Shown one piece after another: positions 7,395 through 26,022 of a DNA stretch of 64,000 bases. The first letter of the stretch is position 1; each line of letters begins with the position of its first letter. The DNA comes from Dictyostelium discoideum (Eukaryota), in contig CM000151.3 in NCBI GenBank assembly GCA_000004695.1, positions 6,912,001 through 6,976,000 of the forward strand. Direction: 5' to 3'. Position numbers and translations under genes: made by a program. The notes beneath the pieces were generated by a model. The model was not told the DNA's origin. It did not search any database and saw nothing but the letters and a program-made list of their open reading frames with translations.

Positions 7395-8610
7395 TTAACC
7401 AACAATTTCAAATTCTGAAATTGATAAAGCTAAAGATCTTTGATTCTCTAATTCTGAAGTTATTGGTTGTTCAACTATTATATTTAAATTATTATCATCA
7501 TCATTATTCTTATTACTACTAAATAATGAATCCCATTTAAAAAATGACCAATATGAACTTTTATTATTGTTATTATTATTATTACTATTTACATTTACAT
7601 TTATTATATCATTTTCATTAATAAGATACTTTGGTTGTTGTTGTAGTTGTTGTTGTTGTAGTTGCAGTTGTTGTTGCAGTTGTTGTTCGATTAATTTATT
7701 TTTTTTACCAATAAAACCACCATGTAATGATTGAAAATCGGTTAATAATTTTAAAATATTTTGATTTTTAGTTCTACTGATTGTATGTTGTGAAAAACCT
7801 TCAGTTCTATTTTGACAAAGAAATTTTACAATTTCATAATGACCATTTTCAACAGCCATTGAAATTGCATTTTTTGTACAACCCTCTGCTCTATTCTCAT
7901 GTAAAAACTTAACTACTTCTAAATGACCATATTGGGCTGACAAATCCATTGCATTAACAGTTGCACCTTCTTTTCTATTTTCATGTAAAAATTTTAAAAT
8001 CTCTAAATCACCATGACGTGCACTTAAATCAATTGATGATGTTGATGCATATCCTCTTTTATTATTATTATTATCATTGTTTTTAATTTTATTATTACTA
8101 TTTTCAATTTCATGTAAATATTTAACTTTTTCAAGGTCTCTTGAATCTACTGCATTGTCCAACACGAAAAACATTTTCTCCATTTCATCTCTTTTTAATG
8201 TGAATAATATTTTAAATAATTCACTATTATCTTTAAAACTAATCATTTTAAATATTAATCTATATGAACGAGTTGAAAAATCTAATTTAATTGTTGAATT
8301 ATTATTATTATAGTTTTTAAAAACTTTATCTTTTAATAATCCAATATTTTCACTTAAAATCATTGATTCAACAGATGTATAATCTTGATATTTCTTAAAT
8401 TGATAATTTCTATCAATGAATGTTATTTTATCTTTTTCCAAATTAATTTTATTGATTTCTTCTATTTTATTAATATTGCTTCTAGATTTCTTATTTTTAA
8501 TAGTCGATAATAAACAATTCCAATTTGAATTTTCACTTTTTAAAAATGTTGATATTATATTCCATAAATATTTATTACGAAAAACATAATAAAATAAATA
8601 ATCATTTGTA

Positions 8611-9412: not shown

Positions 9413-9651
9413 ATGAGTCGTCGTATGGGAGGAGGTATGCCAAAGATAAACTTATGTTTGTATCAAAGAATTATTGTAAAAAAAATAAAAAAAAATAAAT
9501 AAATAAAATTAATTAATAAATTAATTATTTACTTTAAAATTTTTTAGCTGGCGCTATTCCAAATAATAATACATCAACACCATCAACACCAACTTTAAGA
9601 AGTTCAGTATCTGTATCATCAAGCAACAGCAGAGGTTTATTTTTAGCCTAG
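9413..9651 (+). CDS. Small two-exon peptide gene X1, 48 aa: MSRRMGGGMPKINL|S|GAIPNNNTSTPSTPTLRSSVSVSSSNSRGLFLA*.
   Basis: Exon 1 is 9413-9455 and ends at donor GTTTGT. The intron is 9456-9547 with acceptor TTTTTAG. Exon 2 is 9548-9651. Both splice sites and the phase are conserved in the diverged paralogue at 10516. Alternative: an unspliced read-through gives a 31-aa ORF. Confidence 0.4.
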
Positions 9652-9993: not shown

Positions 9994-10051
9994 ATGTAAA
10001 GTTTATCATCTCTATTTAAAACAGGTAATGGTGATAACAAACTAGGAGCAG
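9994..10051 (+). pseudogene. Decayed copy of W-type exon 1. The start codon is followed directly by a stop (ATG TAA).
   Basis: atcATGTAAagtttatcatctctatttaaaacaggtaatggtgataacaaactaggagcag|gtatgatt here, versus the intact attATGGAGagtttatcaagtttatctaaaaccggtaatggtaataacaaactaggaggag|gtatgatt at 11091. Confidence 0.45.
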
Positions 10052-10123
10052 GTATGATTGTTTATTTATTTTTTATTTTATTTTTTTTATTATTTTATTG
10101 ATAAACATATAGGAAAAAAAACA

Positions 10124-10343
10124 ATGATTAAAATTCCAACAGGAAGAAAAAATAAACAATCAGGTAAGATTTATTTTATTAATTTTAAATTTTTTTTTTT
10201 TATAAAAATATTAATTTGGATTTGTATTCAAATTAGTTACAAATGGTCAAGTTATAAATAATGTTTGTAGACGCAACAAGCTCGCCAACAGGGGGATATC
10301 ACAAACTTGGATTATCTATTTGGAAATCAAAATTCATTTTTAA
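10124..10343 (+). pseudogene. Y-type copy Y1, frameshifted. Exon 1 MIKIPTGRKNKQS is intact. Exon 2 reads VTNGQVINNVCRRNKLANRGISQTWIIYLEIKIHF*, out of frame relative to its paralogues.
   Basis: Exon 1 is 10124-10163 with donor GTAAGATTT. Acceptor is aaattag at 10236. Exon 2 aligns with Y3 and Y4 for the first 4 aa, then indels shift the frame (aatgtttgtagacgcaacaagctcgcc versus aatgtttttggcaccaaatgcaacaaactcacc). Confidence 0.4.
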
Positions 10344-10357
10344 AATATATTCAAAAA

Positions 10358-10392
10358 ATGAAATTGCATGGTGGAAGATGTAAAATATTGGA
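10358..10392 (+). pseudogene. Z-type copy Z1. Exon 1 has an inactivated 5' splice donor (GT to AT).
   Basis: Here ATGAAATTGCATGGTGGAAGATGTAAAATATTGG|ATAAGAATT. The intact copy at 14042 is ATGCAATTACATAGTGGAAGAAATAAAACTTTGG|GTAAGAATT. Confidence 0.4.
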
Positions 10393-10515
10393 TAAGAATT
10401 TTTCTAATAATATTTTTTAATATTTATCCCAACAGATTTCTTTTTTTTTTTTTTCCATATTGTTTTAGTTTCATTAATCTTTGTAATATTTCTTTATTTG
10501 CATTTACCAAAAAAA

Positions 10516-10736
10516 TGATTCATGGTGTGGAGGGGGAATGCCCAAAGATTAACTTAAGTTTGTATCAAAGAATAATTTTTTAAAAAAAAAAAAAAAAAAA
10601 AAATTATCCACTGTAAAAATTTTTAGCTGGCGCTGTTACAATTAATAAACACTACTTTAAATTCAGTATCTGTATCATTAAGCAACAGCAGAGGTTTTTT
10701 AACTTTTTTTTTTATTGTTTTTTATTTTTAGCCTAG
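10516..10736 (+). pseudogene. Diverged X-type paralogue X2. The ORF is still open (MIHGVEGECPKINL|T|GAVTINKHYFKFSICIIKQQQRFFNFFFYCFLFLA*) but an internal deletion has removed the Ser/Thr-rich core. Functional status unclear.
   Basis: Exon 1 is 10516-10557 with donor GTTTGT. Exon 2 is 10627-10736, ending GCC TAG. The splice sites and phase match X1. Confidence 0.3.
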
Positions 10737-11090
10737 ATTTTTTAAAAAAAAAAGTAAAAAAAAAAAATAAAAAATAGTTGTTCACAAACTTTATATTTCA
10801 TTATTTGAAAATGAAAACACCAACCTTATATGTATTTATTTTTTTTTTTTTTTTAAAAAAAAATTCCTTTTTTCTAAAGCTAATGGTTGGCTATTTTTTT
10901 TTTTTTTTTTATCTTGTTAAATAGATTTTTTTTTTGTTTTTTTTTGTTTTTTTTTGTTTTTTTTTTTTTTTTTTTTTTTTTTTTGATTAAAAATATCTTT
11001 TTTTTTTTGTTTTTTTTTTTTTTTTTAATATTTTTTTTTATTATTTTTTCACTAAAACCAATCCAATCACTTTTTTTAATATCAATAATT

Positions 11091-11158
11091 ATGGAGAGTT
11101 TATCAAGTTTATCTAAAACCGGTAATGGTAATAACAAACTAGGAGGAGGTATGATTAT

Positions 11159-11196
<38 letters not shown>

Positions 11197-11329
11197 GTGA
11201 AACTAATAAAAAAAAAAAAAAAATTAAAGTAGGATATACATTTTTACAAAAACCACAAAATGTTTCATCACCTACAGCAAGACCCTCAACTCCTCAACCA
11301 GGTGCAGGGAAAGGTATATTTTTAGCATA
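11091..11329 (+). CDS. Small two-exon peptide gene W2, 52 aa: MESLSSLSKTGNGNNKLGG|V|GYTFLQKPQNVSSPTARPSTPQPGAGKGIFLA*.
   Basis: Exon 1 is 11091-11148 with donor GTATGA. The intron is 11149-11228 with acceptor ttaaag. Exon 2 is 11229-11329 and ends TTA GCA TAA. The GIFLA* end parallels GLFLA* of X1. Confidence 0.45.
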
Positions 11330-11713
11330 ATCAAATAAAAATAAACAGTCAAAATTTGGGCTATTCAATCCATTACTTTATTTTTTTTATTTTTTTTTTT
11401 TTTTTATTTTTATTTTTTTTTTTTTTTTTTTTGATTACCCCATTTGATTTCTTATTTTTTTCAAACTGCTCTTAAAAACCACACAACCCAAAACCTTTCG
11501 GCAAAATAAATTAAAAACAGTGTTTTTTTTTTTAAAAAGTTCTGTTTTGAAATGAAATCCAATTTTATTTTTTTATTTTTTTTGATATTATTTTGACCTT
11601 TGGATAAAATTTTTTATTTTTTTTTTTTTTTTTTTTATTTTTTTTTTTTTATTTTTTTTTTTTGTTTAATTTTTATTTTTTTTTTATTTTTTATTTTATT
11701 GTTAAAAGTATAG

Positions 11714-11950
11714 AAAAAAAAAAGGGATAGTGTTTGGTTAGGAGGAAAAAACAAACAATCAGGTAAGATTTATTTTTTTTTTTTTTTTTATTTTTTTTTA
11801 TTTTTTTATTTTTTTTTATTTTATTCTTAAACTTGTATTCAAATTAGTTGCAAATGGTCCAGGTAAAGCAATGTTTTTGGCACCAAATGCAACAAACTCA
11901 CCAACAGTGGGATATAGCCCAAGAATTTTAAGCTACACACCTGGATTCAA
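11714..11950 (+). pseudogene. Y-type copy Y3. It has no in-frame start codon in its first exon: ..KKKRDSVWLGGKNKQS|G|VANGPGKAMFLAPNATNSPTVGYSPRILSYTPGFKP*. Either a pseudogene or an internal exon with an undetected upstream exon.
   Basis: The in-frame TAG at 11711-11713 is the tatag acceptor-like site. Donor is caatcag|gtaagattt at 11762/11763. Exon 2 begins after caaattag at about 11836 and ends CCT TAA. Confidence 0.35.
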
Positions 11951-12751
11951 ACCTTAAAAAAAATAAAAAAAAAAAAAAAAAAAAGATTTTTTAATTTAAA
12001 ATAAAATTAAACATATATAAACAATTGGGTATTTTTTTTTTTTTTTTAAAATTAAAGATATAATACTTTTTTCAACAATAACTTAATTTTGTTTGTTTTT
12101 TTTTTTAAAAAAAAAAAATTGATTATTTACTTTTTTATTTTTTTTTTTTTTGTTTTTTATTAAAAAAATAATATAACAAAATTAAATAAAGTAATTATAA
12201 CTAATAAATATTGTAAATAATTAGGTTTATTATTTATATCATTCTTTAACCAGGTGTGTATTTTTAGAAACCTGTAAATTTCCTGGTTCCCACACCATGA
12301 TAGATTTAAACTAAATTTGGGAAATAGAAAAATTGAAATTTAACGCAAATAAACAGATCAACTTTTTTATTTATTTTATTTTTTTTTTTTCAACCAACTT
12401 ACAATTTTTATAATTTTTTTTTTTTTTTTTTATTCACCCAATCATGATTACTTAAAACCTCGAAAAAAAAAACGGTATATTCCCAAATTTATTTTTTTAT
12501 TTTTTTTTTATTGTTTTTAAATTGTCTGTTTGGAAATGAAAAATCAATTTTTTTTAAAATAAAAAATAATTTAAACAATCAATTTTCAAATAATATTTTT
12601 TTTATTTTTTTTATTTTTTTTTTTTTTTTTTTTTTTTTTTGATATTTCTTGTACAAATGATATTTAATATATTTTTCTTTATCTTTCTTAATTATTTTAT
12701 TTTTTCCTAATCCAAGTGTCTGAAATATATTAAAAAAAATGAATCATGGGT

Positions 12752-12783
<32 letters not shown>

Positions 12784-13104: not shown

Positions 13105-13342
13105 ATGATGATATTTGATTCTTTTTTAGGAGGAAAAAACAAACAAAGTAAGATTTATTTTTATTATTTTTTTTTAAATTTTTATTTTTTTTTATTTTTA
13201 TTTTTATATATATATATATTAATTTAAATTTGTTTTTAAATTAGCTCTAAGTGGTCCAGTTAAAACAACGTTTTTGGCACCAACCACAACAAGCTCACCA
13301 ACAGTGGGAATTGTAAATGGTACAGTTGGATTTAGACCTTAA
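13105..13342 (+). CDS. Small two-exon peptide gene Y4, 46 aa: MMIFDSFLGGKNKQ|T|LSGPVKTTFLAPTTTSSPTVGIVNGTVGFRP*.
   Basis: Exon 1 is 13105-13147 with donor GTAAGATTT. The intron is 13148-13244 with acceptor aaattag. Exon 2 is 13245-13342 and ends AGA CCT TAA. The exon 2 core (FLAP..T..SPTVG) is conserved with Y3. Confidence 0.45.
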
Positions 13343-14041
13343 AATAAAAAAAAAATAAAAAAAAAAAAAAAAAAACAAAAAAAAAATTTATTATTTAATT
13401 TAAAATAAATAAAAATTATAAAGCTTTTACTTTTTTGTTGAAAAAAAAAAAGAACAGTATCTTTAAAATTTTCTTCAACCAGATGTGTATTTTTAGAAAC
13501 CTTTAAATTTCCTGGTTCCCACACCATGGTAGATCTGTACAAAATTTGGAAAATGGAAAAATTAAAATTAAACACAAATAAAAAATGAATAAACAGCCAA
13601 TCTTTTTTATTGACTTAATTTTTATTTTTTTAAATTTTTTTTTTTTATTTTTGCTACCAACTGATAATTGTTTTAATTTAGTTTTTTTTAAATTTTTTTT
13701 TTTTTTTTTTTCATTCACCTCACCATGATTATTTAAAACCTCGAAAAAAAAAAAAAATGACTCTTCGGTATATTCTCAAATTTATTTTTTTATTGTTTTT
13801 AAATTGTCTGTTTAGAAACGAAAAATTAATTTTTAAAAACAATAAAAAAAAAAATCCAAGCAATCAGTTTTCGATTATAATTATTATTATTTTTTTATTT
13901 TTTTTTTGAAATTTTTTGAAAATGACGTTTAAAATGTTTTTTATTTAAAGAATTGTTTTTTTTTTTTTTCTTTTTATTTTTATTTTTCTTTATTTTTTAA
14001 ATCATTTTTTTCTAGGCAAGTGTTTGAAATATTTTCAAAAA

Positions 14042-14243
14042 ATGCAATTACATAGTGGAAGAAATAAAACTTTGGGTAAGAATTTTTTTTTTTTTTTTTT
14101 TTTTTTTTTATTATTTCTTTTAAAATTAACATTCTAATAACCTATTAGCATCAGATTTCACTGCTAGTGGGATGTATCTTATTTCAAGACCAAAAGGTAC
14201 AGTAGGACCTCCAATTTTTAGCAACTATTCTTTTAGTTATTAA
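14042..14243 (+). CDS. Small two-exon peptide gene Z, 42 aa: MQLHSGRNKTL|A|SDFTASGMYLISRPKGTVGPPIFSNYSFSY*.
   Basis: Exon 1 is 14042-14075 with donor GTAAGAATT. The intron is 14076-14148 with acceptor cctattag. Exon 2 is 14149-14243 and ends TAT TAA. Confidence 0.4.
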
Positions 14244-15900: not shown

Positions 15901-16681
15901 ATGAATAAAATTTTATCATTATTTTTAATAACCATATTATTAATTTCAAAAGTTATGTCATCAAGCGAAGAATGTAAACTTTGTACTGATTTTATGTATG
16001 ACTCATTAAATGAACTTATTGAAATTGCCATTAGTATGTTTATAAATATATAAATTAATTATTTAATTCCCTATTTATTTTTTTTATTTACTAATTTAAA
16101 TTTTTTTTTTTTAATAATAAATAAAATAATAATATTAAATTTTAGATGGTGGAGTTATTGGTAGTTGTGGTGCTCTTTGTAATAAATTAGGTATTGCTCC
16201 TTTATGTATGGTATGTGCTATTGCCTGTGATGCAGTTGGAATTAATGGTTTTATGGATTTATTACAAGATGTTTTCCCAGATCCAATTTACATTTGTGAA
16301 AGTGTTAAAATGTGTCAATACAATGATAAAGCAAATGCAACTATTACTGAAGTTGTAATTAATCCAATGAGTGGAAATGTAGGTGACACTTTCAAAATTG
16401 GTGTATCATTTAATGTAACCAACACTATTGCAACTGGAGAAATTTTATGGAATGTTGTTGACCCAAGAGGTTTCCAATTTGGTGAAACTGAAGTTATAAT
16501 TGATGCTGCTCCTTCAATTTACGGTGCCGCTTTCAGTTTCCAAGCAACTCCTTCTGAACAAGAAGAATTCCCACCAGGTGAATACCAATTACAAATGCAA
16601 ATTTGTGAAGGTACCTGCGGTTCACCACATCCACATTCTTATATTTTATCAAATCAATATTTAAATTTCACCATTATATAA
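15901..16681 (+). CDS. Secreted Cys-rich saposin-like protein, possibly countin-like, about 222 aa in 2 exons.
   Basis: Exon 1 is 15901-16033: MNKILSLFLITILLISKVMSSSEECKLCTDFMYDSLNELIEIAI. It has a signal peptide and CxxC, and ends at donor GTATGT. The intron is 16034-16145. Exon 2 is 16146-16681: N GGVIGSCGALCNKLGIAPLCMVCAIACDAVGINGFMDLLQDVFPDPIYICESVKMCQYND.... The six-Cys spacing is saposin-B-like. The countin assignment is from memory of the family only. Confidence 0.65.
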
Positions 16682-24607: not shown

Positions 24608-26022
24608 TTAATTAGTAGTTTGAGGAATTGAATTATCAACTGGAATTGAATTTTCAATTTTAGCAGAAGAATCAACTTTTGAAAGGTTTGGAGTTGAAGA
24701 TTCAACGGGTTTTTTAAAAATATAATCTGGTTTTACACAATCAGCAGGAAGATTTGGATTATGAATGAAATAGTGTGGTTTATGAATGAAATTTGGATCC
24801 TTTGCCAAATTTACTTTTGCTTTCTTTCTTTGAAGATCTTCGATTCTTTGTTTTTCAAGACCAGCCTTTCTACTATCTTTCTTTGCGAAACCCTCAGCAA
24901 CACCTTTCCAAACCTTTTGAGAAGCATTCTCTTTTAATTGTTCCATTGGTTCCTCGATGACTGGTTCAGAACGCATGGTATTGTAATTTATAAAGACACC
25001 AGATGTTTTATCTTTGAGATTAGTGATGGTAAGTATATCAACATGAGTACCATGAATATCATAGATTGGTTCGGTACCTTTGCTAACTATGATTTGAAGA
25101 TCGTGCCATTTGCCACCAATGATTGGTTTGTCCTTGAAATTGATGACTGCGCTATAGCCAGTTTCTGGACAAACAAAATTATATTTACCAGTGAATTCAA
25201 ATTTCCATCTCAAAAGACGAAGATAACCCTCTGTGAATTTATCGTTGAAATAGGTCTCGGTGACACCACCCTCTCTCTCCAATGTGATACAAGTCTTTAC
25301 ATCCATATTGACACGAATACATTTACCCTTGAATACTGGTGTGATTTGTTGTTTTGAATCAAATTTGATCTTATGTTTATCATTGTAAAAGTTAAAACAT
25401 GAAATTGGTGGATGATGTGAAATTTGTTCGGCTGTGAAATGTGTAATATCACCTTGAATCACCTCATTGGTCTTCTCATCTGTATGTTGAACTTGACATT
25501 CATAAACTTCTCCTAAAATTGGATTCAATGGATTCTTTGGGAAATACATCTTTGGCCATGTTAAATGATATTTTAAAACTTGTAAAAATCTTTGATCATC
25601 TTCTTTAATATATGGTGCACTATTTAAAATTTTAAAATTTTAAAAAATTAATATAAAATGAAAAAAATAAAAAAATAAAAAAAAATAAAAAAGTAATATA
25701 TATATATAAATTACCTTGTTAATAAATGTGAAAAAATTGCTGATTGTTGTTGAATTGCTGTTAAGAAACTAATTGGTTGTACAAATGTTGCTGGAATTGG
25801 TAATTTAGTCATATCTGCACCAACTTTAAGATGATTCTTAATGAATCCAAATGCTTGTTTCATAACACCTGCCTCTGTGGCTGGTTCAGAATCAATCATT
25901 GCATCAGCTCCACTATTTTCAGTTTGATCAACTCCTTCAGCTTCAACGCCATCACTTGAAAGATCACTAACACTATCTTCTGTTAATGGTGCTTCTTTAT
26001 TGCTTGCTACTTTTGCTGACAT
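24608..26022 (-). CDS. Oxysterol-binding protein (OSBP/ORP) family member, short form of about 440 aa in 2 exons.
   Basis: Exon 1 is 25715-26022 (MSAKVASNKEAPLTEDS...SAIFSHLLT) with donor GTAATT. The intron is 25620-25714 with acceptor AAATAG. Exon 2 is 24608-25619 (S APYIKEDDQRFLQVLKYHLTWPKMYFPK...). It has the OSBP fingerprint EQISHHPPIS. Confidence 0.85.

Follow-up and report, generated by a model that had tools for sequence, protein, structure and literature searches.

Tandem gene clusters that evolve by birth and death, such as those of the globins and the olfactory receptors, typically contain unprocessed duplicated pseudogenes alongside their functional members. A second kind of locus is exemplified by tarsal-less/pri of Drosophila, which packs several very short open reading frames (ORFs) with a common conserved motif into a single locus, a kind of gene that annotation readily overlooks. 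Features reminiscent of both meet in the array described here, which lies in a stretch of 64,000 nucleotides (nt) of Dictyostelium discoideum AX4 chromosome 2 (hereafter the window), directly upstream of the counting-factor gene ctnC (countin-3). The array consists of copies of four related micro-genes, here termed X, W, Y and Z; in AX4 each type has one intact copy, and between these stand five, probably six, decayed copies. We argue that this composition very probably reflects an old tandem duplication of the four-gene block, the spare copies of which have become pseudogenes through ordinary birth-and-death evolution. The copies, in window coordinates and all on the forward (+) strand, are the following:

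9413-9455 and 9548-9651, +: the two exons of X1, intact, with a phase-1 intron; 48 amino acids (aa), equal to DDB_G0276433 (Q86HW0)
9994-10059, +: pseudogene W1; exon-1 equivalent 9994-10051, donor GT at 10052, exon 2 missing
10124-10343, +: pseudogene Y1; exon 1 10124-10163 followed by an intron and, from 10237, a frameshifted exon 2
10358-10440, +: pseudogene Z1; exon 1 10358-10391, with AT in place of the donor GT at 10392-10393
10515-10736, +: pseudogene X2; ATG at 10515, donor at 10558, acceptor before 10627, TAG ending at 10736
11091-11148 and 11230-11330, +: the two exons of W2, intact; 52 aa, the conserved part of DDB_G0276505 (Q551K1)
11709-11957, +: pseudogene Y3; tatag at 11709-11713, exon-1 equivalent to 11762, exon 2 11848-11957 open
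12700-12762, +: candidate sixth decayed copy; remnant of a Z-like promoter and exon 1, lacking 19 nt internally, donor GTAAG changed to GTCAG
13105-13147 and 13245-13342, +: the two exons of Y4, intact; 46 aa, the conserved part of DDB_G0276507 (Q551K0)
14042-14075 and 14149-14243, +: the two exons of Z2, intact; 42 aa, AX4 gene model absent

The decayed copies descend from the same genes as the intact ones. Local alignment of W1, X2, Y1 and Z1 with their intact or partner copies gives z = 15-36 against dinucleotide shuffles; W1 is 88% identical to the exon 1 region of W2 (z=36), and Y1 compared with Y3 and Z1 compared with Z2 reach z=27 and z=16, respectively. Upstream regions, donors and introns align between copies, so that the parental intron and flanks have been kept and the copies are not retrocopies; the whole intron is retained in X2, Y1 and Y3, and only its start in W1 and Z1. 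Homology to a paralog, retention of intron and flanks, a disabling lesion and the lack of cross-lineage conservation together point to unprocessed pseudogenes.

A preliminary description of this DNA, made from its letters alone, had assigned a different inactivating lesion to each of these five copies, and closer inspection bears out most of its account. In W1 the ATG (9994-9996) is immediately followed by TAA (9997-9999), where W2 has ATG GAG (11091-11096); to this we add that exon 2 is missing altogether and that the donor GT is intact. Y1 keeps exon 1 and both splice sites (donor CAG^GTAAGA at 10164, acceptor aaattag^ before 10237, with ^ marking the splice boundary), and its exon 2 is thrown out of frame, relative to Y3 and Y4, by several indels, among them a +1 insertion and a deletion of 6 nt. 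Z1 has its ATG at 10358 and a mutated donor, TTGG^ATAAG as against TTGG^GTAAG in Z2; its exon 2, which had been called absent, is nearly all gone but has left an 8-nt remnant, cagatttc, at 10433-10440. X2 keeps its splice sites (donor T/A^GTTTGT) and has lost the Ser/Thr-rich core, as described, although its ATG lies at 10515 and not at 10516; it additionally has a 26-nt insertion near the 3' end, and its GGGMPK motif has become EGECPK. The description was right that Y3 lacks a start codon but mistaken in supposing that a tatag had taken its place, as nearly all Y copies in the genomes of the D. discoideum clade have this element 10-15 nt ahead of their ATG. The true lesion is a change of ATG to AGG at 11723-11725, and an in-frame TAG just upstream puts Y3 beyond rescue by an upstream start. 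The Z-like remnant at 12700-12762 aligns more weakly than the other copies (z=5.7) and is probably a sixth decayed copy; it contributes the ATG at 12739 of the 93-aa DDB_G0276507 model. The AX4 protein set contains none of the decayed copies, whether these are counted as five or as six.

Orthologous loci, 20 kb per genome, were retrieved from eight further assemblies by way of ctnC homologs and the neighbouring single-exon ankyrin gene. They are, with the distance of their ctnC from that of the window: 1) L001, a second D. discoideum assembly (GCA_054883475.1; ctnC equal), which is probably AX2-214, a strain name that we infer. 2) L003 and L004, diverged D. discoideum strains (4-6%). 3) L005 and L008, two 'D. 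cf. discoideum' that are possibly cryptic sister species (6-8%). 4) L006, D. citrinum (13%). 5) L007, D. dimigraforme (16%). 6) L002, D. firmibasis (19%). L001 and L003-L008 appear to come from the Nanopore and Illumina assemblies of Holland et al. 2025 (PMC12745789).

Comparison with other isolates and with D. firmibasis, which the preliminary description had proposed as a check, reveals lesions of different ages, some of them lineage-specific and others shared. An old change is that in W1, the second codon of which is TAA in the window, L003 and L004 and TAG in L005; the first step, GAG to TAG, thus predates D. discoideum in the strict sense, and L004 has since added a 21-nt deletion. The core deletion of X2 is common to the window, L003 and L004, and each has gone on to acquire lesions of its own: the 26-nt insertion in the window, a 1-nt deletion that creates a stop in exon 1 in L003, and an ATG to ACG change together with an 11-nt deletion in L004. 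Only the window and L001 have Y1 and the 5' part of Z1, both of which are missing from L003, L004 and L005; in L003 the W1 intron is joined directly to the cagatttc tail of Z1 by a later deletion. X2, like Y1 and Z1, is absent from L005. Y3 has its ATG in L003, L004 and L005 and AGG only in the window and L001, the two AX4-like assemblies; it is intact in L003 and L005, and in L004 it has been frameshifted independently by a 5-nt deletion in exon 2. The array of L008 is a simple X-W-Y-Z, from which the duplicate copies, W1 included, are absent. The different ages of the lesions and the independent losses imply that the decay is partly old and demonstrably still in progress.

The intact copies behave quite differently. 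For X and W, each of the genomes examined preserves the start codon, a phase-1 intron, an uninterrupted frame and the stop at the homologous position. Four genomes of the D. discoideum clade carry Y4 (window, L003, L004 and L005), all of them in intact form, and Z is intact in the window, L005 (8814-9021) and L008 (about 7428-7637), with a 6-nt in-frame indel in the latter two. L006 and L007 possess X, W and a Y/Z-like gene. In D. firmibasis the only copies found, within L002 5200-10000, are X (7139-6929) and W (6624-6365); they lie on the strand opposite ctnC and are separated from it by an ankyrin-repeat gene, an arrangement that differs from that of D. discoideum and points to inversion or rearrangement on a local scale. 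Annotated as RB653_002761, the W ortholog of D. firmibasis is a 53-aa protein that starts MSFESLS, and its structure is that of the model built here. In D. citrinum we also noticed, at L006 7656-7866, an intact W/Y intermediate (MSTSKTGNGKGKQGQ^IGLVFAAPAPSPPTAPRNPISQPGANKGIFLA), which links the W and Y types and shows further turnover in the family.

Aligned with one another, X, W, Y and Z constitute a single orphan family of proteins of 42-53 residues, each encoded with one phase-1 intron. Exon 1 specifies Met, a short variable stretch and then, at its end, the motif G-x-G-x-x-K, just after which the intron is inserted; in most genes its length is about 65-115 nt, but one gene has an intron of 237 nt. 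Exon 2 is rich in Ser, Thr and Pro, and in X and W it closes with a C-terminal [KR]-G-x-F-L-A. The phase-1 intron is present in 24/24 scripted models from seven genomes, and the four L008 genes, read by eye, have the same structure. The alignment of the X and W orthologs, 15 in number, has six invariant columns (G, G, K, P, G and F), and these orthologs also share a basic-x-S/T site.

The existing annotation captures this family in part. Consecutive RefSeq numbers run from XP_643132 (DDB_G0276433, X1) through XP_643133 (DDB_G0276505, W2) and XP_643134 (DDB_G0276507, Y4) to XP_643135 (DDB_G0276479, ctnC). The spliced product of X1 is identical to P0014/Q86HW0, and its donor T^GTTTGT is kept in all genomes. 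A first X model of 41 aa, which used the upstream donor G^GTATGC at 9435, was dropped, because this GT is missing in L005, L006 and L007 (the GGTATG site not being kept), whereas T^GT(T/A)(T/A)GT at 9456 is conserved and fits DDB_G0276433. From its third residue on, W2 coincides with the last 50 residues of DDB_G0276505 (66 aa), and Y4 equals the C-terminal 46 residues of the 93-aa DDB_G0276507. The other genomes do not preserve the annotated starts of these two models (ATG 10812 and ATG 12739), whereas they do preserve the short ones, 11091 (MESLS...) and 13105 (MMIF...), the W2 start ATGGAGAG being kept in six D. discoideum-group genomes. The N-terminal extensions, MKTPTLYLMIFF... in DDB_G0276505 and MNHGSDFFFFFFFF... 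in DDB_G0276507, are conserved in no other genome and are probably prediction artefacts. The exact sequence of Z2 is not in the protein collection searched, and the RefSeq numbering passes straight from Y4 to ctnC; Z2 looks like an unannotated conserved micro-gene. As a separate observation, the intron of W2 is in frame and free of stops (ORF 10887-11330), so that its retention would yield a longer protein with a Lys-rich insert. Peptides expected from the intact copies would include a tryptic or C-terminal fragment ending GLFLA or GIFLA, or TTFLAPTTTSSPTVGIVNGTVGFRP.

The manner in which the orthologs of the intact genes change is also telling. In X, W and Y4 all 11 of the 11 exon indels are multiples of three, as compared with 3 of the 13 intron indels. 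When the observed number of substitutions was placed at random and survival was defined as the keeping of ATG, frame, stop and GT/AG, a gene survived neutral change with a frequency of 0.03-0.3 in the nearer comparisons and of 0.005 or less at the distance of D. dimigraforme or D. firmibasis. Taken with the invariant motif columns, these figures argue for a real selection whose target, as far as sequence can tell, is the reading frame together with a few motif residues. The mix of lesions in the spare copies is what the preliminary description had taken it for, the decay of once-functional genes: the parents are real and conserved, and the lesions are of varied age.

These observations can be brought together in a simple scenario. 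The ancestral array was probably a single X-W-Y-Z, the arrangement that L008 still has, and the whole block would have been duplicated in tandem before the radiation of the D. discoideum clade, presumably by unequal crossing-over. A Y(-Z) segment would then have been duplicated a second time; the weak Z-like remnant at about 12700-12762 supports this step and suggests that the duplication that gave Y3 and Y4 was originally one of Y and Z together. With redundancy, one copy of each type would have drifted neutrally and taken whichever disabling mutation came first: a nonsense change in W1, the GT to AT change of the donor in Z1, frameshifts in Y1, loss of the motif and of the core in X2, and loss of the start in Y3. 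Larger deletions would subsequently clear the remains piecemeal, as with Y1 and Z1, gone in two strains, and X2, Y1 and Z1, gone in L005. One copy of each type would stay open in AX4 because its protein is made and used.

A number of points weigh against this reading. The pooled ratio of nonsynonymous to synonymous substitution rates (dN/dS) relative to the window is 0.89 for L003, 1.20 for L004, 0.59 for L005, 0.73 for L006 and 0.46 for L007. Between the window and L003 the intact exons differ at 10.5% of sites, the spacers at 10.1% and the pseudogene exon-equivalents at 9.6%; as the rate in the intact exons equals that of the spacers within D. discoideum, constraint is invisible at the level of substitutions over such short times. 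Amino-acid constraint is weak, and outside the motifs the peptides evolve almost freely. No Z was found at the locus in the 20 kb of L003 and of L004, so that Z is dispensable there or located elsewhere in those genomes, a copy elsewhere being possible; some lineages can evidently do without Z and Y3. None of the searchable papers mentions the identifiers of these genes, and the D. firmibasis gene call RB653_002761 may have been derived from protein homology to DDB_G0276505 and not from transcripts. Finally, X2 in AX4 forms an open spliced ORF of 50 codons up to the homologous stop. The selection that the preliminary description had ascribed to the intact copies thus stands as far as frame, splice sites and motifs are concerned, but it has to be set against the high dN/dS (0.46-1.2) and the lack of Z at this locus in two strains.

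The open frame of X2 leads to a rival reading, according to which some of the decayed copies still function, through alternative splice sites or starts, as new ORFs, or as regulatory RNAs. X2 in AX4 does keep ATG, donor and acceptor as well as its frame, Y1 keeps its ATG, both splice sites and an open frame of 48 codons, and Y3 has an undamaged exon 2 and is separated from its intact L003 ortholog by differences at just 5% of sites. However, the frame of X2 remains open because the +26 insertion compensates for a net deletion of 20 nt, and the central part of the ORF is in the wrong frame; the alternative frames of X2 and Y1 are not conserved, X2 being closed by a stop in exon 1 in L003 and deprived of its ATG in L004. 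W1 has no exon 2 and Z1 no more than an 8-nt scrap of it, Y3 is barred by its upstream TAG, and the spare copies are missing from one genome or another, as detailed above. Continued function of decayed copies is therefore unlikely.

A further reading concerns what the intact genes might be. X, W, Y and Z could be fast-evolving micro-peptides specific to group 4 Dictyostelium, with a role in signalling or social behaviour, for instance as precursors of a peptide factor that is as yet without a gene, and the duplication, the decay and the loss of Z and Y3 in particular strains, like the near-neutral dN/dS, would then express diversifying selection and not simply relaxed constraint. The idea is prompted by the basic-x-S/T site, the [KR]-G-x-F-L-A end of X and W and the position of the array beside ctnC; a search of the literature on Dictyostelium micropeptides found nothing specific, and we hold this reading to be quite improbable.

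At the other extreme, the short ORFs might be no genes at all, and the array merely repeated non-coding DNA with accidentally open frames. Database searches lend this some colour. Neither Pfam nor the PDB sequences gave a match at E up to 10, and an exhaustive HMMER scan of 1.84 billion representatives with the family profile returned no member beyond the four input proteins. The same scan gave three weak matches (E 1e-6 to 3e-4), each of them partial and to a far longer protein; we regard them as spurious. Within D. discoideum dN/dS is near 1, the exons change as fast as the spacers, and the annotations of the new long-read assemblies call no genes at the array. Against this, the gene structure of X and W is kept out to D. 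firmibasis, where ctnC is about 19% different and non-coding sequence no longer aligns to the window; the exclusively three-fold exon indels, the minute neutral survival in each distant comparison, the invariant motif columns and the fall of dN/dS to 0.46 at the distance of D. dimigraforme all speak for genes, and accidental openness is very improbable indeed. On a technical side, a phmmer query with the four peptides concatenated was a false negative, returning nothing despite exact matches of >30 residues in the database, whereas the profile of the aligned small peptides matched DDB_G0276433, DDB_G0276505, DDB_G0276507 and D. firmibasis RB653_002761; negatives of phmmer for short, low-complexity peptides are hence not to be trusted.

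Errors of sequencing or assembly in the AT-rich, homopolymer-rich AX4 reference, the danger that the preliminary description had itself named, are effectively refuted as the source of the lesions: the region is 78% A+T with many long T and A runs, and L001, 99.5% identical to the window over 18.7 kb, differs from it at 12 places in the array (eight homopolymer-run lengths and four spacer single-nucleotide polymorphisms), but all five lesions are present in L001 and no difference touches any of them, none is a change of homopolymer length (W1 has two substitutions, Z1 and Y3 one each, and Y1 and X2 multi-base indels), and those of W1 and X2 recur in the independently assembled and about 10% diverged L003 and L004, the W1 stop also in L005.

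As to the surroundings of the array, the window is 22% G+C and contains typical Dictyostelium genes, with ctnC at 15901-16681. Rfam and tRNA scans of the array gave no matches. A conserved spacer block is situated downstream of Y3 (12240-12330) and of Y4 (13480-13590); it contains the inverted repeat GGTGTG...CACACC and is kept in L003 (8965-9090). The block has no Rfam match and may have a regulatory role. A minus-strand ORF within it (MVWEPGN..., at 12296 and 13527) was rejected as an extra gene, as its ATG and frame are lost in L003. An X-like tblastn match at 25928-26008, S/T-rich and antisense to an oxysterol-binding-protein gene, was treated as spurious.

Several consequences follow from the interpretation favoured here, namely duplication of a four-gene block and decay of its spare copies. 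For the AX4 annotation, three genes listed as hypothetical are now recognised as paralogs within a single orphan family, the starts of two of these are probably misplaced, Z2 is to be added, and five or six unprocessed pseudogenes lie between the annotated genes. The array also offers a small, datable case of birth-and-death evolution, with one survivor per type in AX4 and lesions that can be placed on a tree of strains and species, though it leaves the view of gene decay in general unchanged. As a methodological caution, it illustrates that in micro-proteins the retention of frame and motif can reveal selection where dN/dS cannot.

Returning to the systems with which we began, the array resembles tarsal-less/pri in having several very short ORFs with a short conserved motif in one locus. 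It differs in that each ORF has its own intron and conserved upstream region, giving the appearance of separate transcription units rather than of a polycistronic one, and no sequence similarity between the two was found. The likeness to the globin and olfactory-receptor clusters goes deeper: genes were duplicated in tandem together with introns and flanks, one copy was kept, and the others acquired nonsense, splice, frameshift and start lesions followed by deletions, with varied ages and independent losses. The array departs from those clusters in that its genes have only 42-53 codons, its survivors evolve at a dN/dS of 0.5-1.2, and the duplication took in four different paralogs as one block, leaving in AX4 one intact copy of each type.

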